Source: Bacilli bacterium (GTDB taxonomy: Bacteria > Bacillota_I > Bacilli_A > RFN20 > CAG-826). From it: a stretch of DNA of 64,000 bases. Shown piece by piece: positions 14,547 through 47,773 of this stretch (the stretch's first letter is position 1; each line of letters begins with the position of its first letter). Both the position numbers and the translations under genes were made by a program. Location: assembly GCA_017940265.1 (NCBI GenBank), contig JAGAYY010000025.1, forward strand, positions 256,711-320,710, in the 5' to 3' direction. A model generated the notes under the pieces. The model was not told the DNA's origin. It searched no databases and saw nothing but the letters and a program-made list of their open reading frames with translations.

Positions 14547-16589
14547 TCATTTTCTTGATATTATTTCAAATCCATCTTTAACTCCAGAATCAGTAATTAC
14601 CTTAACTACTTTGAGATTAAAATAGTTTTCTAAATTTTTTGCCTTAGCGACTGATTTATACCCTAATTTTTCATAGATATCCTTTAGTGTAGATTTTATA
14701 TAAACATAAGAATATCTACTACCAACCTCAAAAGTAGAATACACAAGGTCCTCTAATTCTTCCTGCTTTTCTGAATTTTGACTTATTCTATTCCACTCTC
14801 GTTCTATATCAGCTTCTAGATATTTGAGCGCTTTCATCCGTTCTGTTCCGAAAGCTAGGTAATAATCCTTAAATTTACCAGGGAGTCTATCTAAGAACTT
14901 TCCCATATTCTCGGGATCAAGACTAACCTCTATATTATGTATAAACTTAATTTTATCTGGAAATGTCGTTAGTCCATTGAATTCCACTAATAAATCTGAT
15001 ATTCTACTATCCTGGGCTAGGAATCCAGCTTCTCCTAAGGCATTATACACACTGAATCTATCTTTATAATCTACTTGCTGGATATCGAAAGCTCTCATCT
15101 CCGATACCAACATTAGGTTATTAAATACCGGGAGAAGATCAGAACCCGCATGATGATTAACGGCAACATAGTCATTTAAGTAGTGAGATAACTTAATTTC
15201 ACTCTCGTATTTCTTAGCCAATGAATGTCTTTTAGTAGGGTCAGCATCTCTGTATATGTCTAAGAGGTCATAACTAGCTTGTTTTTTCTCTTCTAGGCGT
15301 TTATCAAAAACCTCCTTCGTCTGTTCCTCCTCTGTTGTTTTAACTACCAGATAAGCAGAATTCTTCCAAGGGTTAATATCGAGTCTTTGTCTACCCATAA
15401 TCTGTTCTAAGTCCATACTAATATCAACACTAAGACAATCTATATTACTATCACAGAAAATGAAAGTTCTAGCATTGGTACTATAGAAATCAGCACCGAG
15501 GTATACTGTTCTAGTACAAAAAGTAAACATCTTATGAGGTTCACCTTGTTTAGGAATAGAGCCAATAGCATCAATAGTCCCTGCCTTAGCCCTTTTCATT
15601 GACGGTCGGCCTAATTCGGAAAGAGCCTTATTGAATGCCTGCTTAATTAATTTATTATTTTCGAGAGTCTTAGCACATAGAACGTTACATTGATCTGGAG
15701 TTAATCTATTGTTGATGATAGCCCTAACAATAGCTTTAACTGAATTAACATATATAACTGCCTCCTTAGATACTACTTCATAGGGTCGGCCATCTTCTCC
15801 TATATATCTTCTCCTCTCATACTCCCCACTCAGGTATGGTTGGATTATTTTATTGATCTCTTCATTCAGTCCACGCTTAGTATATCTAACCTCAATCTTC
15901 GGACTAATAACTCGATCCGGATCTTCTTTACTCCAATTAAGTTCATAGTATGGAAGATTCTTAAATTCATCCAGCATATCTAAGTATTCATCTAACATAG
16001 GAGTAGCGGATACAAAGCAAACCTTCTGAATACCTAGGAGCTGATATAAGAGTTCAAGTTCTGTATGAGATTTGAAGCGTGAATCAATGAAGATGCTTTG
16101 AAACTCATCCACTACTATATAGAAATCTTCTAAGACTCCGAGTTCAACTAATACTTCCTTGATATGACGGAATGAATCATAGGTAACTAGAATCTTAGCA
16201 GCTTTTCTATTAAATCTGCATTTCCGGACATAATCTCTGGCTCTATCCTTAAACTCCAAGACTCTTTCAATACTTGGGACTGGTGGATCTACTATTTTTG
16301 CACCTTTAGTCATAGTACTAATATCCTTGTCATATCCAACAACGGATTCAATGTCATTTCTTGCATAGAATACTTCTCCTTGATGTTGATCCTCCTTATT
16401 CTCTAAGAGAAACCGGCGGGGACTACATACGACAACATTAAGTCCGCACCTGATACAATACTCTGTGAAACCGCAACCAGTCAGTGTCTTGTTCAAAATA
16501 TGAGGAGAGTTAAAGTTTTCTAATCCATATTCACTCCACTCTCCTATGTACCTTATTCCTTTTGGTACTACAATCTCTTTTCTATTCAT
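14547..16589 (-). CDS. SF2 helicase-like protein, paralog 1 (Walker A Lys replaced)
   Basis: Motif order GCGFTEY (I, no Lys), CSPRRFLLEN (Ia), VVDEFQS (II), VSATP (III), QIMGRQR (VI). The 718-aa track ORF uses a TTG at 16703. The ATG at 16589 matches the paralog N-terminus, and the 16590-16703 stretch is conserved as DNA with a stop-containing stretch upstream of paralog 2. Confidence 0.8.
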   Translation of the reverse strand: MNRKEIVVPKGIRYIGEWSEYGLENFNSPHILNKTLTGCGFTEYCIRCGLNVVVCSPRRFLLENKEDQHQGEVFYARNDIESVVGYDKDISTMTKGAKIVDPPVPSIERVLEFKDRARDYVRKCRFNRKAAKILVTYDSFRHIKEVLVELGVLEDFYIVVDEFQSIFIDSRFKSHTELELLYQLLGIQKVCFVSATPMLDEYLDMLDEFKNLPYYELNWSKEDPDRVISPKIEVRYTKRGLNEEINKIIQPYLSGEYERRRYIGEDGRPYEVVSKEAVIYVNSVKAIVRAIINNRLTPDQCNVLCAKTLENNKLIKQAFNKALSELGRPSMKRAKAGTIDAIGSIPKQGEPHKMFTFCTRTVYLGADFYSTNARTFIFCDSNIDCLSVDISMDLEQIMGRQRLDINPWKNSAYLVVKTTEEEQTKEVFDKRLEEKKQASYDLLDIYRDADPTKRHSLAKKYESEIKLSHYLNDYVAVNHHAGSDLLPVFNNLMLVSEMRAFDIQQVDYKDRFSVYNALGEAGFLAQDSRISDLLVEFNGLTTFPDKIKFIHNIEVSLDPENMGKFLDRLPGKFKDYYLAFGTERMKALKYLEADIEREWNRISQNSEKQEELEDLVYSTFEVGSRYSYVYIKSTLKDIYEKLGYKSVAKAKNLENYFNLKVVKVITDSGVKDGFEIISRK

Positions 16590-17098
16590 GTTTTTAAATT
16601 TTATTATTCTATCCACCCTTGTATTTTTGGGCGGAATCAGGTCTTTATTCGATAGTAAGGATTTGAGAGCTTCTGAAGTGTGAAACTTCGATTTTATTTT
16701 CAATTTTCAAACATATCCTTATATGAATGTTTGGGTTCAAAAAAGTCGAAAAAATGTATAGGTTATATTGTTAAAACAAAAGGAATCTCGCCTTGGCTTT
16801 CGCCTCGGCTCGAGTCCATTCAAGGGATCTTCGGCTAAAGCCTTCGATCACATTCGGTCGGTTCCCTCCCTCACCTTGAATATAGTATTAGGTCTTGTAA
16901 TATCCTTTACTTCAAGTCTTTGAAGTAAAGATTCTGGTCCGGGCAACGACGAGCTTTAGCGAGGAGGGGCTAGGTGGGCGGACCAGAATGACGAAGTCTT
17001 TGATAACCCTAGAATCATATCAAATAAGTTATCATAGATAACACCCTAGATTCATTTATATACAAAGACAAATACTATAAGCAGAAGCTCTCAACTTC
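16590..17098 (-). promoter_or_regulatory. long structured upstream/leader region of SF2-like paralog 1
   Basis: No credible ORF. GC-rich island 16781-16990 with perfect 11-bp hairpins (16905-16930 and 16931-16989). Block 16655-16686 is conserved with 42708-42737. Confidence 0.45.
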
Positions 17099-17145
17099 AA
17101 AAAAAAAAAAAAAGCTCCGCGCCCGTGTTTTTAACGGTTGCGCGG
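17099..17145 (-). terminator. rho-independent terminator
   Basis: On the minus strand: stem CCGCGC..GCGCGG (17117-17145) with inner CCG/CGG, followed by 15 consecutive T (17099-17113). The stop of gene 17131-17493 lies in the loop. Confidence 0.85.
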
Positions 17146-29312: not shown

Positions 29313-29355
29313 AAAATCTTTATCAATATTAAGGAAAAGACGGCAAAATTAGACC

Positions 29356-29417
29356 AAAAATCCCAAAAAATCCTTGAAAAATTGTCGGAATCCCTTATCC
29401 TATGAAGTAATATCAAG
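29356..29417 (+). promoter_or_regulatory. conserved intergenic element, copy 1 (phased A-tracts + TTGTCGGAATCCCTTATCCTATGAAGT)
   Basis: About 80% identical without gaps to 47711-47773; lies in the divergent control region. Confidence 0.5.
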
Positions 29418-41590: not shown

Positions 41591-41845
41591 AACAATTATA
41601 ATAAACTTAAAAATATGATTACAGGAGAAACTACCTTATGTGTTTTGCGTCACGGGAATACATACGCAACAATCCTCAAGACTACAGAAGATACTTATGA
41701 TGTCTATAGAGGAAATGACTTAATGTATGAAGAAGTAACATACACCGAAGCCTGCGAGTTCTACAAAGCTTTTATGGCTACTAAATCACTAAACCATTCA
41801 GAAGAGATTATATGTATAACAAAGAAACAACCCATATTATCCTAG
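41585..41845 (+). CDS. hypothetical protein
   Basis: 86-aa ORF; alternative start at 41615, because ATG 41585 sits in the S2 stem. Confidence 0.55.
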   Translation: MRNNYNKLKNMITGETTLCVLRHGNTYATILKTTEDTYDVYRGNDLMYEEVTYTEACEFYKAFMATKSLNHSEEIICITKKQPILS

Positions 41846-42498
41846 GAACAGCTCACCTAGGTTCTACCCCAGGAAAATGTAGTCCAGATTCTAAATTCAG
41901 AGAAGCAGTATGGAGTAGAGAAATTATTGCTGAACTTGCCCCTGCCCTTGAAAGTTATGGTTGGACGGTACATGTTGATTATCCCTCAATGCTTCCCGGT
42001 CCTGCTCTCAAAGACAAAGACCCAAAGAAAGAACAATCCAAAGAACTTCAGTATAGGGTTGGATTCGTTAACGGTCTTTGCAAACGACATGGCAAAGAGA
42101 ATTGTATCTACGTGTCAATTCATGTTAATGGAGCTGGAAATGGAGGGAAATGGTTAGGAGCTAGAGGATGGAGCGCTTATACTTCTCCGGGGCAAACAAA
42201 AAGTGATATCCTAGCCTCTGACTTATACTGGGCCGCTACCAAAAATATTGTCCCTGATTACTCTAAAACTGGTGAATGGGTCGGAAGTCAGAAACCTATC
42301 AGGACAGATCTCTCAGATGGTGACCCCGATCTAGAAGAGAGATTATATGTTCTTACTAAAACCCTCTGTCCTGCCGTCCTAACCGAAAATCTCTTCCAGG
42401 ATAATAAGGACGATGTCAGTTTCCTTACCTCAGATCTAGGCCGACAATTAATCCTGAGGACTCATGTAGAAGGAATATTACGATTCTTAGAACGATAA
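41812..42498 (+). CDS. N-acetylmuramoyl-L-alanine amidase (Amidase_3 type endolysin)
   Basis: IILGTAHLGSTPGKCSPD.., YVSIHVNGAGNGG, GWSAYTSPGQTKSD, AVLTENLFQDNKDD. Confidence 0.9.
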   Translation: MYNKETTHIILGTAHLGSTPGKCSPDSKFREAVWSREIIAELAPALESYGWTVHVDYPSMLPGPALKDKDPKKEQSKELQYRVGFVNGLCKRHGKENCIYVSIHVNGAGNGGKWLGARGWSAYTSPGQTKSDILASDLYWAATKNIVPDYSKTGEWVGSQKPIRTDLSDGDPDLEERLYVLTKTLCPAVLTENLFQDNKDDVSFLTSDLGRQLILRTHVEGILRFLER

Positions 42499-42820
42499 TT
42501 ACAAGATGATAGATTTCCATTTTCTCTCGCGCCAGGGGAACCGGAAAGGGAGCCCCTTAATGCCTATCTGCCGATGACGGCATTAAGGCCGCTACGCGGA
42601 AGGCTAAAGCCATTGAACTCCTCTCCCTAATTCCAATTTTTCTAATTTTTTGGTGCCAAAATAATATATTAAACCAATTACAGTAAAAATTGCGTTATAA
42701 ATAGAAATTTCACGCCTCAGAGAAGCTCAAATCCTAATATGTGATGTAGAGAATCGGGCTTCCCCGATTCCCTTGGCCGGTTTATTGGCCAAGGAATTAA
42801 CTTTAAATATAAAACATATT
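42499..42820 (+). promoter_or_regulatory. structured upstream/leader region of SF2-like paralog 2
   Basis: GC-rich island with a 10-bp hairpin (42555-64/42579-88). Block 42708-42737 is conserved with 16655-16686. Two perfect 8-bp hairpins (42751-70, 42771-94) lie just before ATG 42821. Confidence 0.45.
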
Positions 42821-44839
42821 ATGGATATAGTTAAATTAGAAAATGGAAAATCTTTAATAAGAGTTCCAGAAAATATAAGGTACATGAATGATTGGAAAGA
42901 ATTTGATTTCGATTTATTTCATGGACCTTATATTATTGACAAACAAATCCCAGGTTGCGGATTTACAGAGTATTGTCTTACTTCAGGAGATAATCTTATA
43001 CTATGTTCTCCTCGTAAGATTCTTCTAGAAAATAAAGCTAATCAACATCTAGGGGAAGTCTATTATGCTAAGAATGAGATGGAAACGGATCTTAGTATTG
43101 ATAGAGATTCTACTAAAAAGGTTAAGAAGTTATCTAGGGAAACTAAGAAAGAGGATATACATGCTGTTCTTGAAGCTATCGAAAAAATGTATAAAGGGTT
43201 GGATGAGTACATAGAAGATAGAATTAAGAATAGAAAACCTATTAAAATATTGGTTACCTATGATTCTTTCAAACATATCAAGAATTATCTTTTAAAAAGA
43301 AGTAGTCCAGAGCTAGATATCCTAGGATCATTTAAAATAGTGATAGATGAATTCCAGTCGGTTTTTGTAGATTCACACTTTAAACCAACAGTAGAATTAG
43401 ATTTTGTTAATCAACTTTTGGGGTTATCTAATAACATTTGTTTTGTCTCAGCGACTCCTATGCTAGATAAATACCTTAAGCAGGTTGATTATTTCAAGGA
43501 TCTACCATATTTTGAATTTGATTGGGAAACTTTAGATCCGGGCAGAGTTATTAAGCCTGAACTTAAGGTTAGAAAAGAAAGATCTGTTTATGGTAAAGCA
43601 GTTAATATTATTCAAGAGTACCTAGATGGGAAATTTGCTGTTCTTGCAGATCCTACCTCAGGTAAATTAGTTAAAAGTACAGAGGCCGTATTTTATGTAA
43701 ATTCTGTCTTAGGAATTATTAAGATAATAGGAAAAGCTGGTCTTACACCAGATCAGGTTAATATTTTATGTTCTAATACTCCACAAAATCAGAAGAAGAT
43801 TAGAAAAATGTTAGGCAAGGGATTTGTGATTGGTTCAGTTCCCTTGAAAGGGCAGCCACATAAGATGTTTACATTCTGTACTCGAACTGTTTACTTAGGA
43901 GCAGACTTCTACTCAATGTGTGCTAGAACCTTTATATTTAGTGATGCTAATGTGGACTCTATGGCTATTGATATTTCTCTCGACTTACCACAGATTCTAG
44001 GTCGACAGAGGCGTATAGAAAATCCATGGAAGAATCATGCAGAATTCTACTTCAAAACTATTGGAAAAACTAAAGAAGAAACTATAGAAATATTTAGTAA
44101 ACGTCTTGATGAAAAACTAAGGGAAACCTATAGACTTCTGAGAGCTTTTGAAGGAGCAGTAGAGGAAGATAAATCGGCACTATTGAGGAAATATACAAAA
44201 GATATTGCTTCATCTAATTATATGGATGATTATGTATCGATAAGTTTTGTCAATGGTGAGAAAATACCAGTTAAGAACAATCTTGTATACATCTCTGAAC
44301 AACGAGCTTATGAAATACAGCAAATAGATTATAAAGATAGATTCTCAGTTTTTAGTTCTATACAGAAAGAAGGATTGAAACTAGATAGATTAAGTAAAGC
44401 AATAGGAAGGTTAAGGGAGACTTCTATTCCTTTCTCAGCTCGACTAAAATATTTATGTGAATCTACCGAGTATTCTGATGAGGAAAAGAAAATAATAGCG
44501 CAACAAGCTTCGGAGAGCTTTGATAGATATTATAATCTCCTAGGACCTGAAAGATGTAAGGCGCTAAGATATAATATTACTGATCTTAAAAAAGAAATAG
44601 CCGATATTTCTATACCAAAAGAAAAGATAAGTCAAACTTTTCAGAGTAATTTTTTGGTTGGTGCTAGATATTCTAATGTTCAGGCTAAAGAAATTATTAG
44701 AAAAATTTATTCTGAACTTGGTATGAATAAATCACCTAAGGCAACTGACCTAAACAACTATTTTGTTTTTAAGAAAGTAAAATTTCCTGATTCAACCGGA
44801 AAAATGATAAACGGTATTGAAATTCTAGGAACTAAATAA
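42821..44839 (+). CDS. SF2 helicase-like protein, paralog 2 (Walker A Lys replaced)
   Basis: PGCGFTEY, CSPRKILLEN, VIDEFQS, VSATP, QILGRQR. Collinear with 14547-16589. The track start at 42773 is a TTG inside a hairpin. Confidence 0.8.
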   Translation: MDIVKLENGKSLIRVPENIRYMNDWKEFDFDLFHGPYIIDKQIPGCGFTEYCLTSGDNLILCSPRKILLENKANQHLGEVYYAKNEMETDLSIDRDSTKKVKKLSRETKKEDIHAVLEAIEKMYKGLDEYIEDRIKNRKPIKILVTYDSFKHIKNYLLKRSSPELDILGSFKIVIDEFQSVFVDSHFKPTVELDFVNQLLGLSNNICFVSATPMLDKYLKQVDYFKDLPYFEFDWETLDPGRVIKPELKVRKERSVYGKAVNIIQEYLDGKFAVLADPTSGKLVKSTEAVFYVNSVLGIIKIIGKAGLTPDQVNILCSNTPQNQKKIRKMLGKGFVIGSVPLKGQPHKMFTFCTRTVYLGADFYSMCARTFIFSDANVDSMAIDISLDLPQILGRQRRIENPWKNHAEFYFKTIGKTKEETIEIFSKRLDEKLRETYRLLRAFEGAVEEDKSALLRKYTKDIASSNYMDDYVSISFVNGEKIPVKNNLVYISEQRAYEIQQIDYKDRFSVFSSIQKEGLKLDRLSKAIGRLRETSIPFSARLKYLCESTEYSDEEKKIIAQQASESFDRYYNLLGPERCKALRYNITDLKKEIADISIPKEKISQTFQSNFLVGARYSNVQAKEIIRKIYSELGMNKSPKATDLNNYFVFKKVKFPDSTGKMINGIEILGTK

Positions 44840-47678: not shown

Positions 47679-47710
47679 TTATTTTGGCATATTAACTGTC
47701 ATTTTGGCCG

Positions 47711-47773
47711 AAAAATCCCAAAAAATCATCAAAAATTTGTCGGATACCCTTATACCATGAAGTTAAACATCGA
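47711..47773 (+). promoter_or_regulatory. conserved intergenic element, copy 2
   Basis: AAAAATCCCAAAAAATC..AAAAATTTGTCGGATACCCTTATACCATGAAGT; about 80% identical to 29356-29417; directly upstream of the portal gene. Confidence 0.5.

Follow-up and report, generated by a model that had tools for sequence, protein, structure and literature searches.

What controls the second helicase-like gene of the window, and whether the 322-nt gap in front of it works as one long leader or as several elements, was the question raised by positions 42499-42820 (plus strand). The window, the whole stretch of 64,000 nucleotides analyzed here, corresponds to positions 256711-320710 of a 376-kb phage contig (C18), and the gap lies between an Amidase_3 endolysin gene and the gene for a 672-aa helicase-like protein. 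The upstream gene (41812..42498, plus strand, with its stop codon at 42496-42498) was recognized by Pfam (PF01520, E 6e-12) and by PHROG 435, endolysin. A preliminary description of the gap had listed a GC-rich island with a 10-bp hairpin, a conserved block, a short box and two 8-bp hairpins, with another hairpin at the equivalent spot of a paralog, and had read the whole as a translational or transcriptional control leader common to the paralogs. Direct reading of the sequence found every one of these features in its place. A search for similar DNA among GenBank phages gave no match.

The helicase-like gene (42821..44839, plus strand) encodes SF2 helicase-like paralog 2, which is 42% identical to paralog 1 of the same window. 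The protein had no sequence match in Pfam, PHROGs or PDB. Its predicted fold is that of a generic SF2 helicase, and the Foldseek list was led by Brr2, Prp43, RecQ/BLM and DEAD-box proteins, with the HSV-1 origin-binding protein (9hgi_B, E 5.7e-6) at rank 41. The family to which the paralogs belong is very large, with more than 5,000 proteins. Relatives with 30-33% identity (L191, L193 and L201) were seen in Bacteroidales isolate and MAG genomes whose source records name Bacteroides sp. OM05-12, Phocaeicola vulgatus and B. salyersiae; presumably these lie in prophages or other mobile elements.

Nine paralogs were found by tblastn, every one of them on C18, at about 29.6, 73.9, 110.2, 149.9, 185.3, 231.1, 273.3, 299.5 and 346.0 kb. 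Paralog 1 of the window corresponds to the copy at 273.3 kb, and paralog 2, the gene headed by the gap under study, to that at 299.5 kb. A long non-coding region lies upstream in all nine cases. Group A comprises the 74k, 150k, 299k and 346k copies and group B the remaining five; the island of 42499-42820 is common to the group A copies, and the group B copies share a different set of islands. The upstream regions of paralogs 1 and 2 have the block and several shorter words in common. The nine cassettes are spaced more evenly than expected by chance, with P = 6.7e-4 for a minimum gap at least as large as that observed and P = 1.5e-5 for a CV no larger than that observed, a regularity that a role in gene regulation alone does not explain. 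The 346-kb paralog (locus L017, outside the window) was recovered by tblastn as two pieces in different frames, at C18 346781-346784. This split is a frameshift or an assembly error; the ortholog L099, from another assembly, was called as an intact 671-aa gene.

The element which had been described as a conserved block, TTTCACGCCTCAGAGAAGCTCAAATCCTAA at 42708-42737, is indeed present, but it is not an element of the paralog leaders: it is one instance of a promoter-like motif that occurs throughout the phage. The regex CCT[TA]A-N4-TGA first showed an extended 45-nt pattern in many unrelated intergenic regions. An nhmmer profile seeded on the nine paralog blocks and iterated on C18 converged on the family consensus AATTGATAAAACGCGCTTC.GAAGGCCTGAAAACCTTATATATGA and gave, at E<=0.01, 41 matches on the 376-kb contig, among them AATAGAAATTTCACGCCTCAGAGAAGCTCAAATCCTAATATGTGA at 42700..42744 of the plus strand (C18 299410-299454, E 5.5e-7). 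Intergenic matches made up 32 of the 41 (78%), compared with 13% of the contig being intergenic, and 25 (61%) had an ORF start on the same strand no more than 150 nt downstream, compared with 10% of random positions. Only nine matches are at the paralogs; the other 32 precede unrelated genes. The same motif, or a visibly related one, is located 50-150 nt before the ATG in relatives of the paralog. A recurrent and oriented motif, enriched between genes and lying a short distance upstream of them, has the properties of a phage-specific promoter class. Read from this motif, 42700-42744 is the candidate promoter of the helicase-like gene, and transcription would start just after the TGA, at about 42745.

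Known promoter types did not account for the block. Matches to the sigma-70-type pattern (TTGACA-N17-TATAAT) were no commoner than in shuffled sequences and none fell at the block, and the Bacteroides sigma-AB-type pattern (TTTG-N19-21-TAnnTTTG) had no match in 42499-42820 and one in the whole window, where 2.6 were expected. A literature search on promoters in jumbo phages of Bacteroides turned up nothing relevant. The window also contains a second promoter-like class, AAAAWTGTCRNAATSCCTTATNNTATGA, at 29349-29408 and 47704-47763 (plus strand), as 60-nt elements heading two plus-strand gene blocks. In relatives it occurs at L001 2310-2352, at L221 around 650-680 and also in L223, just upstream of the island of a helicase cassette.

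The two 8-bp hairpins probably belong to the 5' leader, since they are found downstream of the promoter-like motif. The predicted leader of about 76 nt (42745..42820, plus strand) has a z of -4.55 and ranks first in stability among the 40 post-promoter segments of the contig; the fold of 42743-42820 reached -28.3 kcal/mol, and none of 200 dinucleotide shuffles was as good. In hairpin 1 (42751-42770) GAATCGGG at 42751-42758 pairs with CCCGATTC at 42763-42770, and in hairpin 2 (42771-42794) CCTTGGCC at 42771-42778 pairs with GGCCAAGG at 42787-42794, both on the plus strand. The two are therefore back to back between 42751 and 42794, as had been described, with 26 nt between hairpin 2 and the ATG. 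This remaining stretch (42795-42820, plus strand) is unstructured and A+T-rich and reaches the ATG at 42821.

Conservation of the leader hairpins was found in a set of ten group-A-type sequences, comprising the phage's own four copies and six relatives with 53-60% protein identity. Hairpin 2 is present in all ten with compensatory changes: about six stem columns show at least two canonical pair types, with variants such as C-G/U-A and U-A/C-G/G-C, and the loop varies from 8 to 22 nt. For this count every sequence was folded separately and its pairs were registered on the 5' arm; a MAFFT alignment had mis-registered the 3' arms. Hairpin 1, read by eye, is present in 8 of the 10 with a different sequence each time, and in none of the group-A-type sequences do the leader hairpins include the start codon. 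Compensatory changes of the kind used to recognize a generic structured RNA were found both in the columns of hairpin 2 and in the changes of the island hairpin considered below.

Structure after the promoter is, at the same time, a general property of this phage. The segments following 32 non-paralog promoters had a mean z of -2.3, and the paralog leaders were more structured, with a mean z of -3.8 (Mann-Whitney P=0.019). As post-promoter structure is common and stronger in the paralog leaders, their hairpins appear to be an enhanced version of something that the phage transcripts show in general. The density of GC-rich hairpins is 5-7 times higher in upstream regions than in coding sequence. 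Two specific roles for the leader hairpins were considered and rejected. An attenuator or intrinsic terminator is disfavored by the lack of a U-run after the hairpins in relatives. A translational operator masking the start site is disfavored by the hairpins ending at 42794, with 42795-42820 unpaired in the MFE and centroid folds. Thus, ending 26 nt before the ATG and lacking a U-run, the hairpins neither mask the start codon nor look attenuator-like. Transition-mismatch counts were used to ask at which level, RNA or DNA, and on which strand the pairing is kept. For the UTR zone, the island zone and the coding control, the ratios of G.U to A.C in hairpins were 9:9, 47:42 and 100:58, and for GC-rich stems they were 3:2, 16:7 and 14:17, respectively. 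Since no clear preference for G.U over A.C is seen on the sense strand, these counts do not demonstrate selection at the RNA level, and palindromes kept at the DNA level fit them as well.

The G+C-rich island (42529..42634, plus strand) has a peak G+C of 0.64, compared with 0.36 for the contig. It is approached from the endolysin side by an interval without a canonical terminator in this copy, and it opens with a T-rich run and start motif (42520..42544, consensus YTWATTTTTTC-GSGCCARGGGAAC) that includes the core word GCCAGGGGAA at 42531-42540. The perfect 10-bp hairpin noted beforehand follows at 42555-42588, with CCTTAATGCC (42555-42564) pairing with GGCATTAAGG (42579-42588). Further along the plus strand come two smaller hairpins, CCGC-TAC-GCGG at 42589-42599 and GGC-TAAA-GCC at 42602-42611, and a C-rich 3' word, CTCCTCTCCCTA at 42618-42629, which can pair with the G-rich start of the island. 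An A+T-rich spacer (42635..42699, plus strand) then leads to the promoter-like motif; it contains T-runs at 42637-42641 and 42646-42651, and the box TATAAATA, found at 42696-42703 as listed, begins at its end. A T-run about 95-110 nt before the end of the promoter is kept in many relatives.

Folding of the island by itself (42527-42640) gave -38.6 kcal/mol with a z of only -1.75, and 10 of 200 shuffles were as good. The significance of the island therefore rests on comparison with relatives, as the single-sequence fold only marginally beats shuffles. Of the ten intergenic stretches of the contig with the highest peak G+C, eight were islands upstream of the paralogs; one of the other two contains a tRNA-shaped sequence, as judged by eye, and the other is the contig end. 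The island is specific to the paralog genes. The copy at C18 73.6 kb is 85-96% identical, and the start motif is kept in all four group A copies and in L098, L099, L100, L219, L220 and L221. In the 150k and 346k copies the island hairpin has changed from GCC/GGC to GTC/GAC, with an added A:T pair and a loop insertion that carries its own hairpin. Islands of the group A type have in general a long hairpin of variable sequence and a TCCCCTA-like C-rich 3' word, and the pairing of island start with 3' word also shows a compensatory change, being AGGGGA/TCCCCT in L219 and AGGGAA/TTCCCT in the 346k copy.

Rfam gave no match in the window at gathering thresholds, and at E<=1 the nine cassette loci gave only a chance snoRNA match (E 0.73). 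No exact 25-mer of the island was found in viral contigs, nhmmer profiles of the islands recovered only the phage's own copies and near-identical assemblies, and RNAalifold, run on eight islands belonging to two subtypes, found no common fold. Past the start word, the island sequence diverges too fast for homology to be recognized from sequence. A larger arrangement was observed in the human-gut Jug phages L046, L048, L050, L059, L064, L092 and L093, where the islands, about 250-450 nt before the ATG, form a large dyad. Its layout in these lineages is GGTTCTTAAAAAGTA, a hairpin, CTCTTTTAAGGTTCA, an A+T-rich spacer, GTGAACCTCCTATAAGAG, a hairpin and CTCTTATAGAAGAACC; the stems of the hairpins co-vary, and several of the lineages have the word CACTATGTTCGC in common.

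The cassette of paralog 1 (16590..17110, minus strand) is of the group B type and heads the gene at 14547-16589, also on the minus strand. In the direction of transcription it presents the word GTTGAGAGCTTCTG at 17095-17082, the palindrome GTTATCTATGATAAC at 17042-17028, G+C-rich hairpins, the promoter-like motif at 16693-16650 with the inverted word CAGAAGCTCTCAA inside it at 16675-16663, and a leader hairpin at 16635-16612. This last hairpin is the one which had been placed at the equivalent spot of paralog 1, and it is formed by TCCGCCC (16635-16629) pairing with GGGTGGA (16618-16612), with one G.U pair on the sense strand. Two further observations belong to this cassette. The palindrome at 17028-17042 is perfect and forms the center of a dyad of about 45 bp whose arms end in outward-facing TATATGA boxes; it occurs in four of the five group B cassettes, namely in paralog 1 and at equivalent sites at C18 29.2, 109.8 and 231.6 kb, and the dyad looks like divergent promoters with one common operator. 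Just upstream of the phage-type motif of paralog 1, positions 16708-16741 (minus strand) hold the sole match in the window to the Bacteroides host pattern TTTG-N17-23-TAnnTTTG, which may be meaningless, as the chance expectation is 2.6 per window.

A feature absent from the preliminary description links the island end of the cassette to its leader end. The right copy of the island word, TTCCCTTGGC, the reverse complement of GCCAAGGGAA, is inverted at 42768..42777 (minus strand) and reaches from the 3' arm of hairpin 1 into the 5' arm of hairpin 2; the left copy is the core word at 42531-42540. The 10-mer GCCA[AG]GGGAA (GCCARGGGAA) has seven occurrences on the 376-kb contig, both strands counted, compared with about 0.4 expected from base composition, and six of the seven are in these cassettes: four at the starts of the group A islands and two, inverted, in the leaders of the 74k copy and of the present one. 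The inverted arrangement is also found in L219 and L100. Group B has an equivalent pair, in which CAGTTGAGAGCTTCTG stands far upstream and the leader carries its complement, and the arms co-vary between copies, as in ATTAAGAG / CTCTCAATTAC of the 29k copy. When about 70 relatives were scanned, many showed lineage-specific long-range inverted pairs, with z values up to 10 relative to shuffled leaders; examples are GAAGACTAAGGATACC, TCGAGTTGGGAG and one imperfect pair of 32 nt. In these long-range pairs G.U and A.C were about 8:8, as read by eye. Pairing of the words as RNA needs transcription of the island start, which is doubtful for most copies. Recognition sites of a DNA-acting factor, whether a regulator or an initiator, would fit the words, because they are lineage-specific, lie on both sides of the promoter in evenly spaced cassettes and show no sense-strand preference for G.U.

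Taken together, the idea of a control leader common to the paralogs is retained in part. A conserved structured control region exists, with the same layout in all nine copies and in many relatives, and its gene-proximal hairpins, 3' of the promoter-like motif and probably in the 5' leader, are conserved through compensatory changes. However, the GC island with its 10-bp hairpin is upstream of the predicted transcription start, and structured post-promoter segments are common in the phage. With the start predicted from the motif, transcription probably begins downstream of the hairpins in the GC-island half, and not downstream of the two 8-bp hairpins. The anatomy, consisting of island, spacer, generic promoter, hairpin leader and inverted word, is well supported. 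The same cannot be said of the mechanism, for which we tentatively choose as the best reading a promoter with a structured 5' leader and a separate paralog-specific element upstream, holding it at a little under an even chance.

On this preferred reading, the gap would be a three-part control cassette of the helicase-like gene and not a single long leader. The promoter at 42700-42744, of the phage-wide class, would start transcription at about 42745 and would depend on the CCTAATATGTGA box. In the resulting leader of about 76 nt two neighboring stem-loops would come first and an open A+T-rich stretch would separate them from the ATG, and the stem-loops would most likely act in the RNA, by protecting the 5' end of the message, by offering a binding site to a regulator, or both. 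Structured 5' untranslated leaders with stem-loops close to the 5' end stabilize bacterial and phage mRNAs, the ompA leader being an example. The phage leader is similar in having stable hairpins within about 10 nt of the predicted 5' end, then an open A+T-rich stretch before the start codon, and in keeping its structure while the sequence drifts; it is different in that its 5' end is predicted and in that a hairpin arm carries a conserved word which is also found, inverted, 240 nt upstream. The G+C-rich island (42529-42634), an element specific to the paralog genes, would lie outside that leader, being upstream of the promoter. Its first ten bases, GCCAGGGGAA, recur inverted in the arm shared by the leader hairpins, and the word may mark recognition of both cassette ends by a cognate factor or a complementary RNA. 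Such a factor could be the gene's own product, which would make the expression of each paralog self-contained.

The main rival, which we regard as rather unlikely on the whole, is that the cassette is a replication-origin module, in which the helicase-like protein encoded next to it would recognize inverted words on either side of the promoter and of an A+T-rich stretch that melts easily. The nine paralogs would, at the same level of doubt, be origin-specific initiators of a multi-origin genome of 0.4 Mb. Such modules would be in keeping with the even spacing of nine cassette-plus-gene pairs noted above, with lineage-specific inverted words that bracket the A+T-rich spacer and promoter, with mismatch counts devoid of a sense-strand wobble preference and with an SF2 fold that brings the HSV-1 origin-binding protein into the Foldseek matches. 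However, GC skew follows the coding strand (r=0.93) and has the same sign across eight of the nine sites, including the 299.5-kb copy; the fold matches are generic SF2, with Brr2, Prp43, RecQ and DEAD-box proteins ranking higher, and no link to an initiator was found at the sequence level; and word arms 230-500 bp apart, with hairpin loops of 8 to 22 nt, are unlike known initiator box layouts. Comparison with the initiator paralogs encoded beside the origins of multi-origin archaeal chromosomes (Sulfolobus oriC1-3 with Orc1-1, Orc1-3 and WhiP) and with HSV-1 OriS/UL9 gives a similar balance. Dispersed non-coding modules adjoin paralogous ATPase genes, inverted words flank an A+T-rich stretch and the SF2 fold is that of UL9, but the phage has the wide arm spacing, no skew switch and only generic SF2 similarity. 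If the word were the recognition site of its own paralog's protein, the phage would contain nine self-addressed pairs of ATPase and site, for instance origin-specific initiators; judged from the words themselves this is doubtful, slightly more so than the origin reading as such, and we know of no such arrangement described for any phage.

Structured RNA genes classically stand out as G+C-rich islands in A+T-rich genomes, and the island could be a separate small RNA, a structured transcript of about 100 nt whose 5' word pairs with the adjacent mRNA leader, making it a cis-encoded and copy-specific repressor or activator of the P1 c4 kind. We consider both the transcript and this role improbable. 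Comparably rich intergenic stretches are only the tRNA-shaped sequence (by eye) and the contig end, T-runs follow the island, its 5' word is complementary to the leader, and in L001 and L221 a second-class promoter motif, resembling the elements at 29349 and 47704 of the window, lies 17-33 nt before the island start. Yet no promoter motif precedes the island in the 299k and the three other group A copies, a terminator abuts it in up to three of the phage's own copies (including p150k) and in L099 and L100, the neighboring promoter points away from it in L098, L219 and L220, the left word of group B is upstream of the putative island promoter, and Rfam gave no match. The c4 antisense RNA and icd-ant of phages P1/P7 likewise have a structured element just upstream of the target, in the target's orientation, with short complementary words; most of the phage cassettes differ in having no recognizable promoter before the island, whose transcript is hypothetical. 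Little credence, of about the same degree, is given to an ordinary intergenic region, in which the endolysin transcript ends and a promoter and generic 5' stem-loops follow, and which would serve no function specific to the paralogs. A generic promoter, the commonness of post-promoter hairpins in the phage and a terminator scan that flagged hairpin 2 with its tail AATTAACTTT as weakly terminator-like all agree with it, but only the nine paralog cassettes have the islands and inverted words, which are conserved in relatives, and the cassettes are evenly spaced. By far the least probable is an inverton, in which a recombinase would flip the segment of about 240 bp between the inverted words and so switch each paralog on or off. 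The order of inverted repeat, promoter, inverted repeat and gene is that of Bacteroides invertons of the Mpi type, which also bracket a promoter upstream of each multi-copy gene; the present genome is Bacteroides-associated, and the arms co-vary between copies. Against this, the exact locus reads identically and in one orientation in four independent assemblies, no inverted segment emerged when about 200 related upstream regions were compared all against all by blastn, no assembly examined has a flipped copy such as Mpi-type switching would leave, and the arms are short and imperfect at the 299k copy. An inversion switch is accordingly disfavored.

Jug-type jumbo phages reportedly account for about 1% of human gut metagenome reads, and the paper describing them mentions no helicases, origins, promoters or cassette class (PMC12880540). 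The present analysis provides a first working promoter motif for a Jug-type phage and separates the probable leader from the non-leader part of the 322-nt gap. It also defines a cassette, made up of island, promoter, leader with hairpins and inverted word, that is found with each copy of this very large helicase-like family. If these cassettes are origins or self-recognition sites, this would account for the number of paralog genes as well as for their even spacing.
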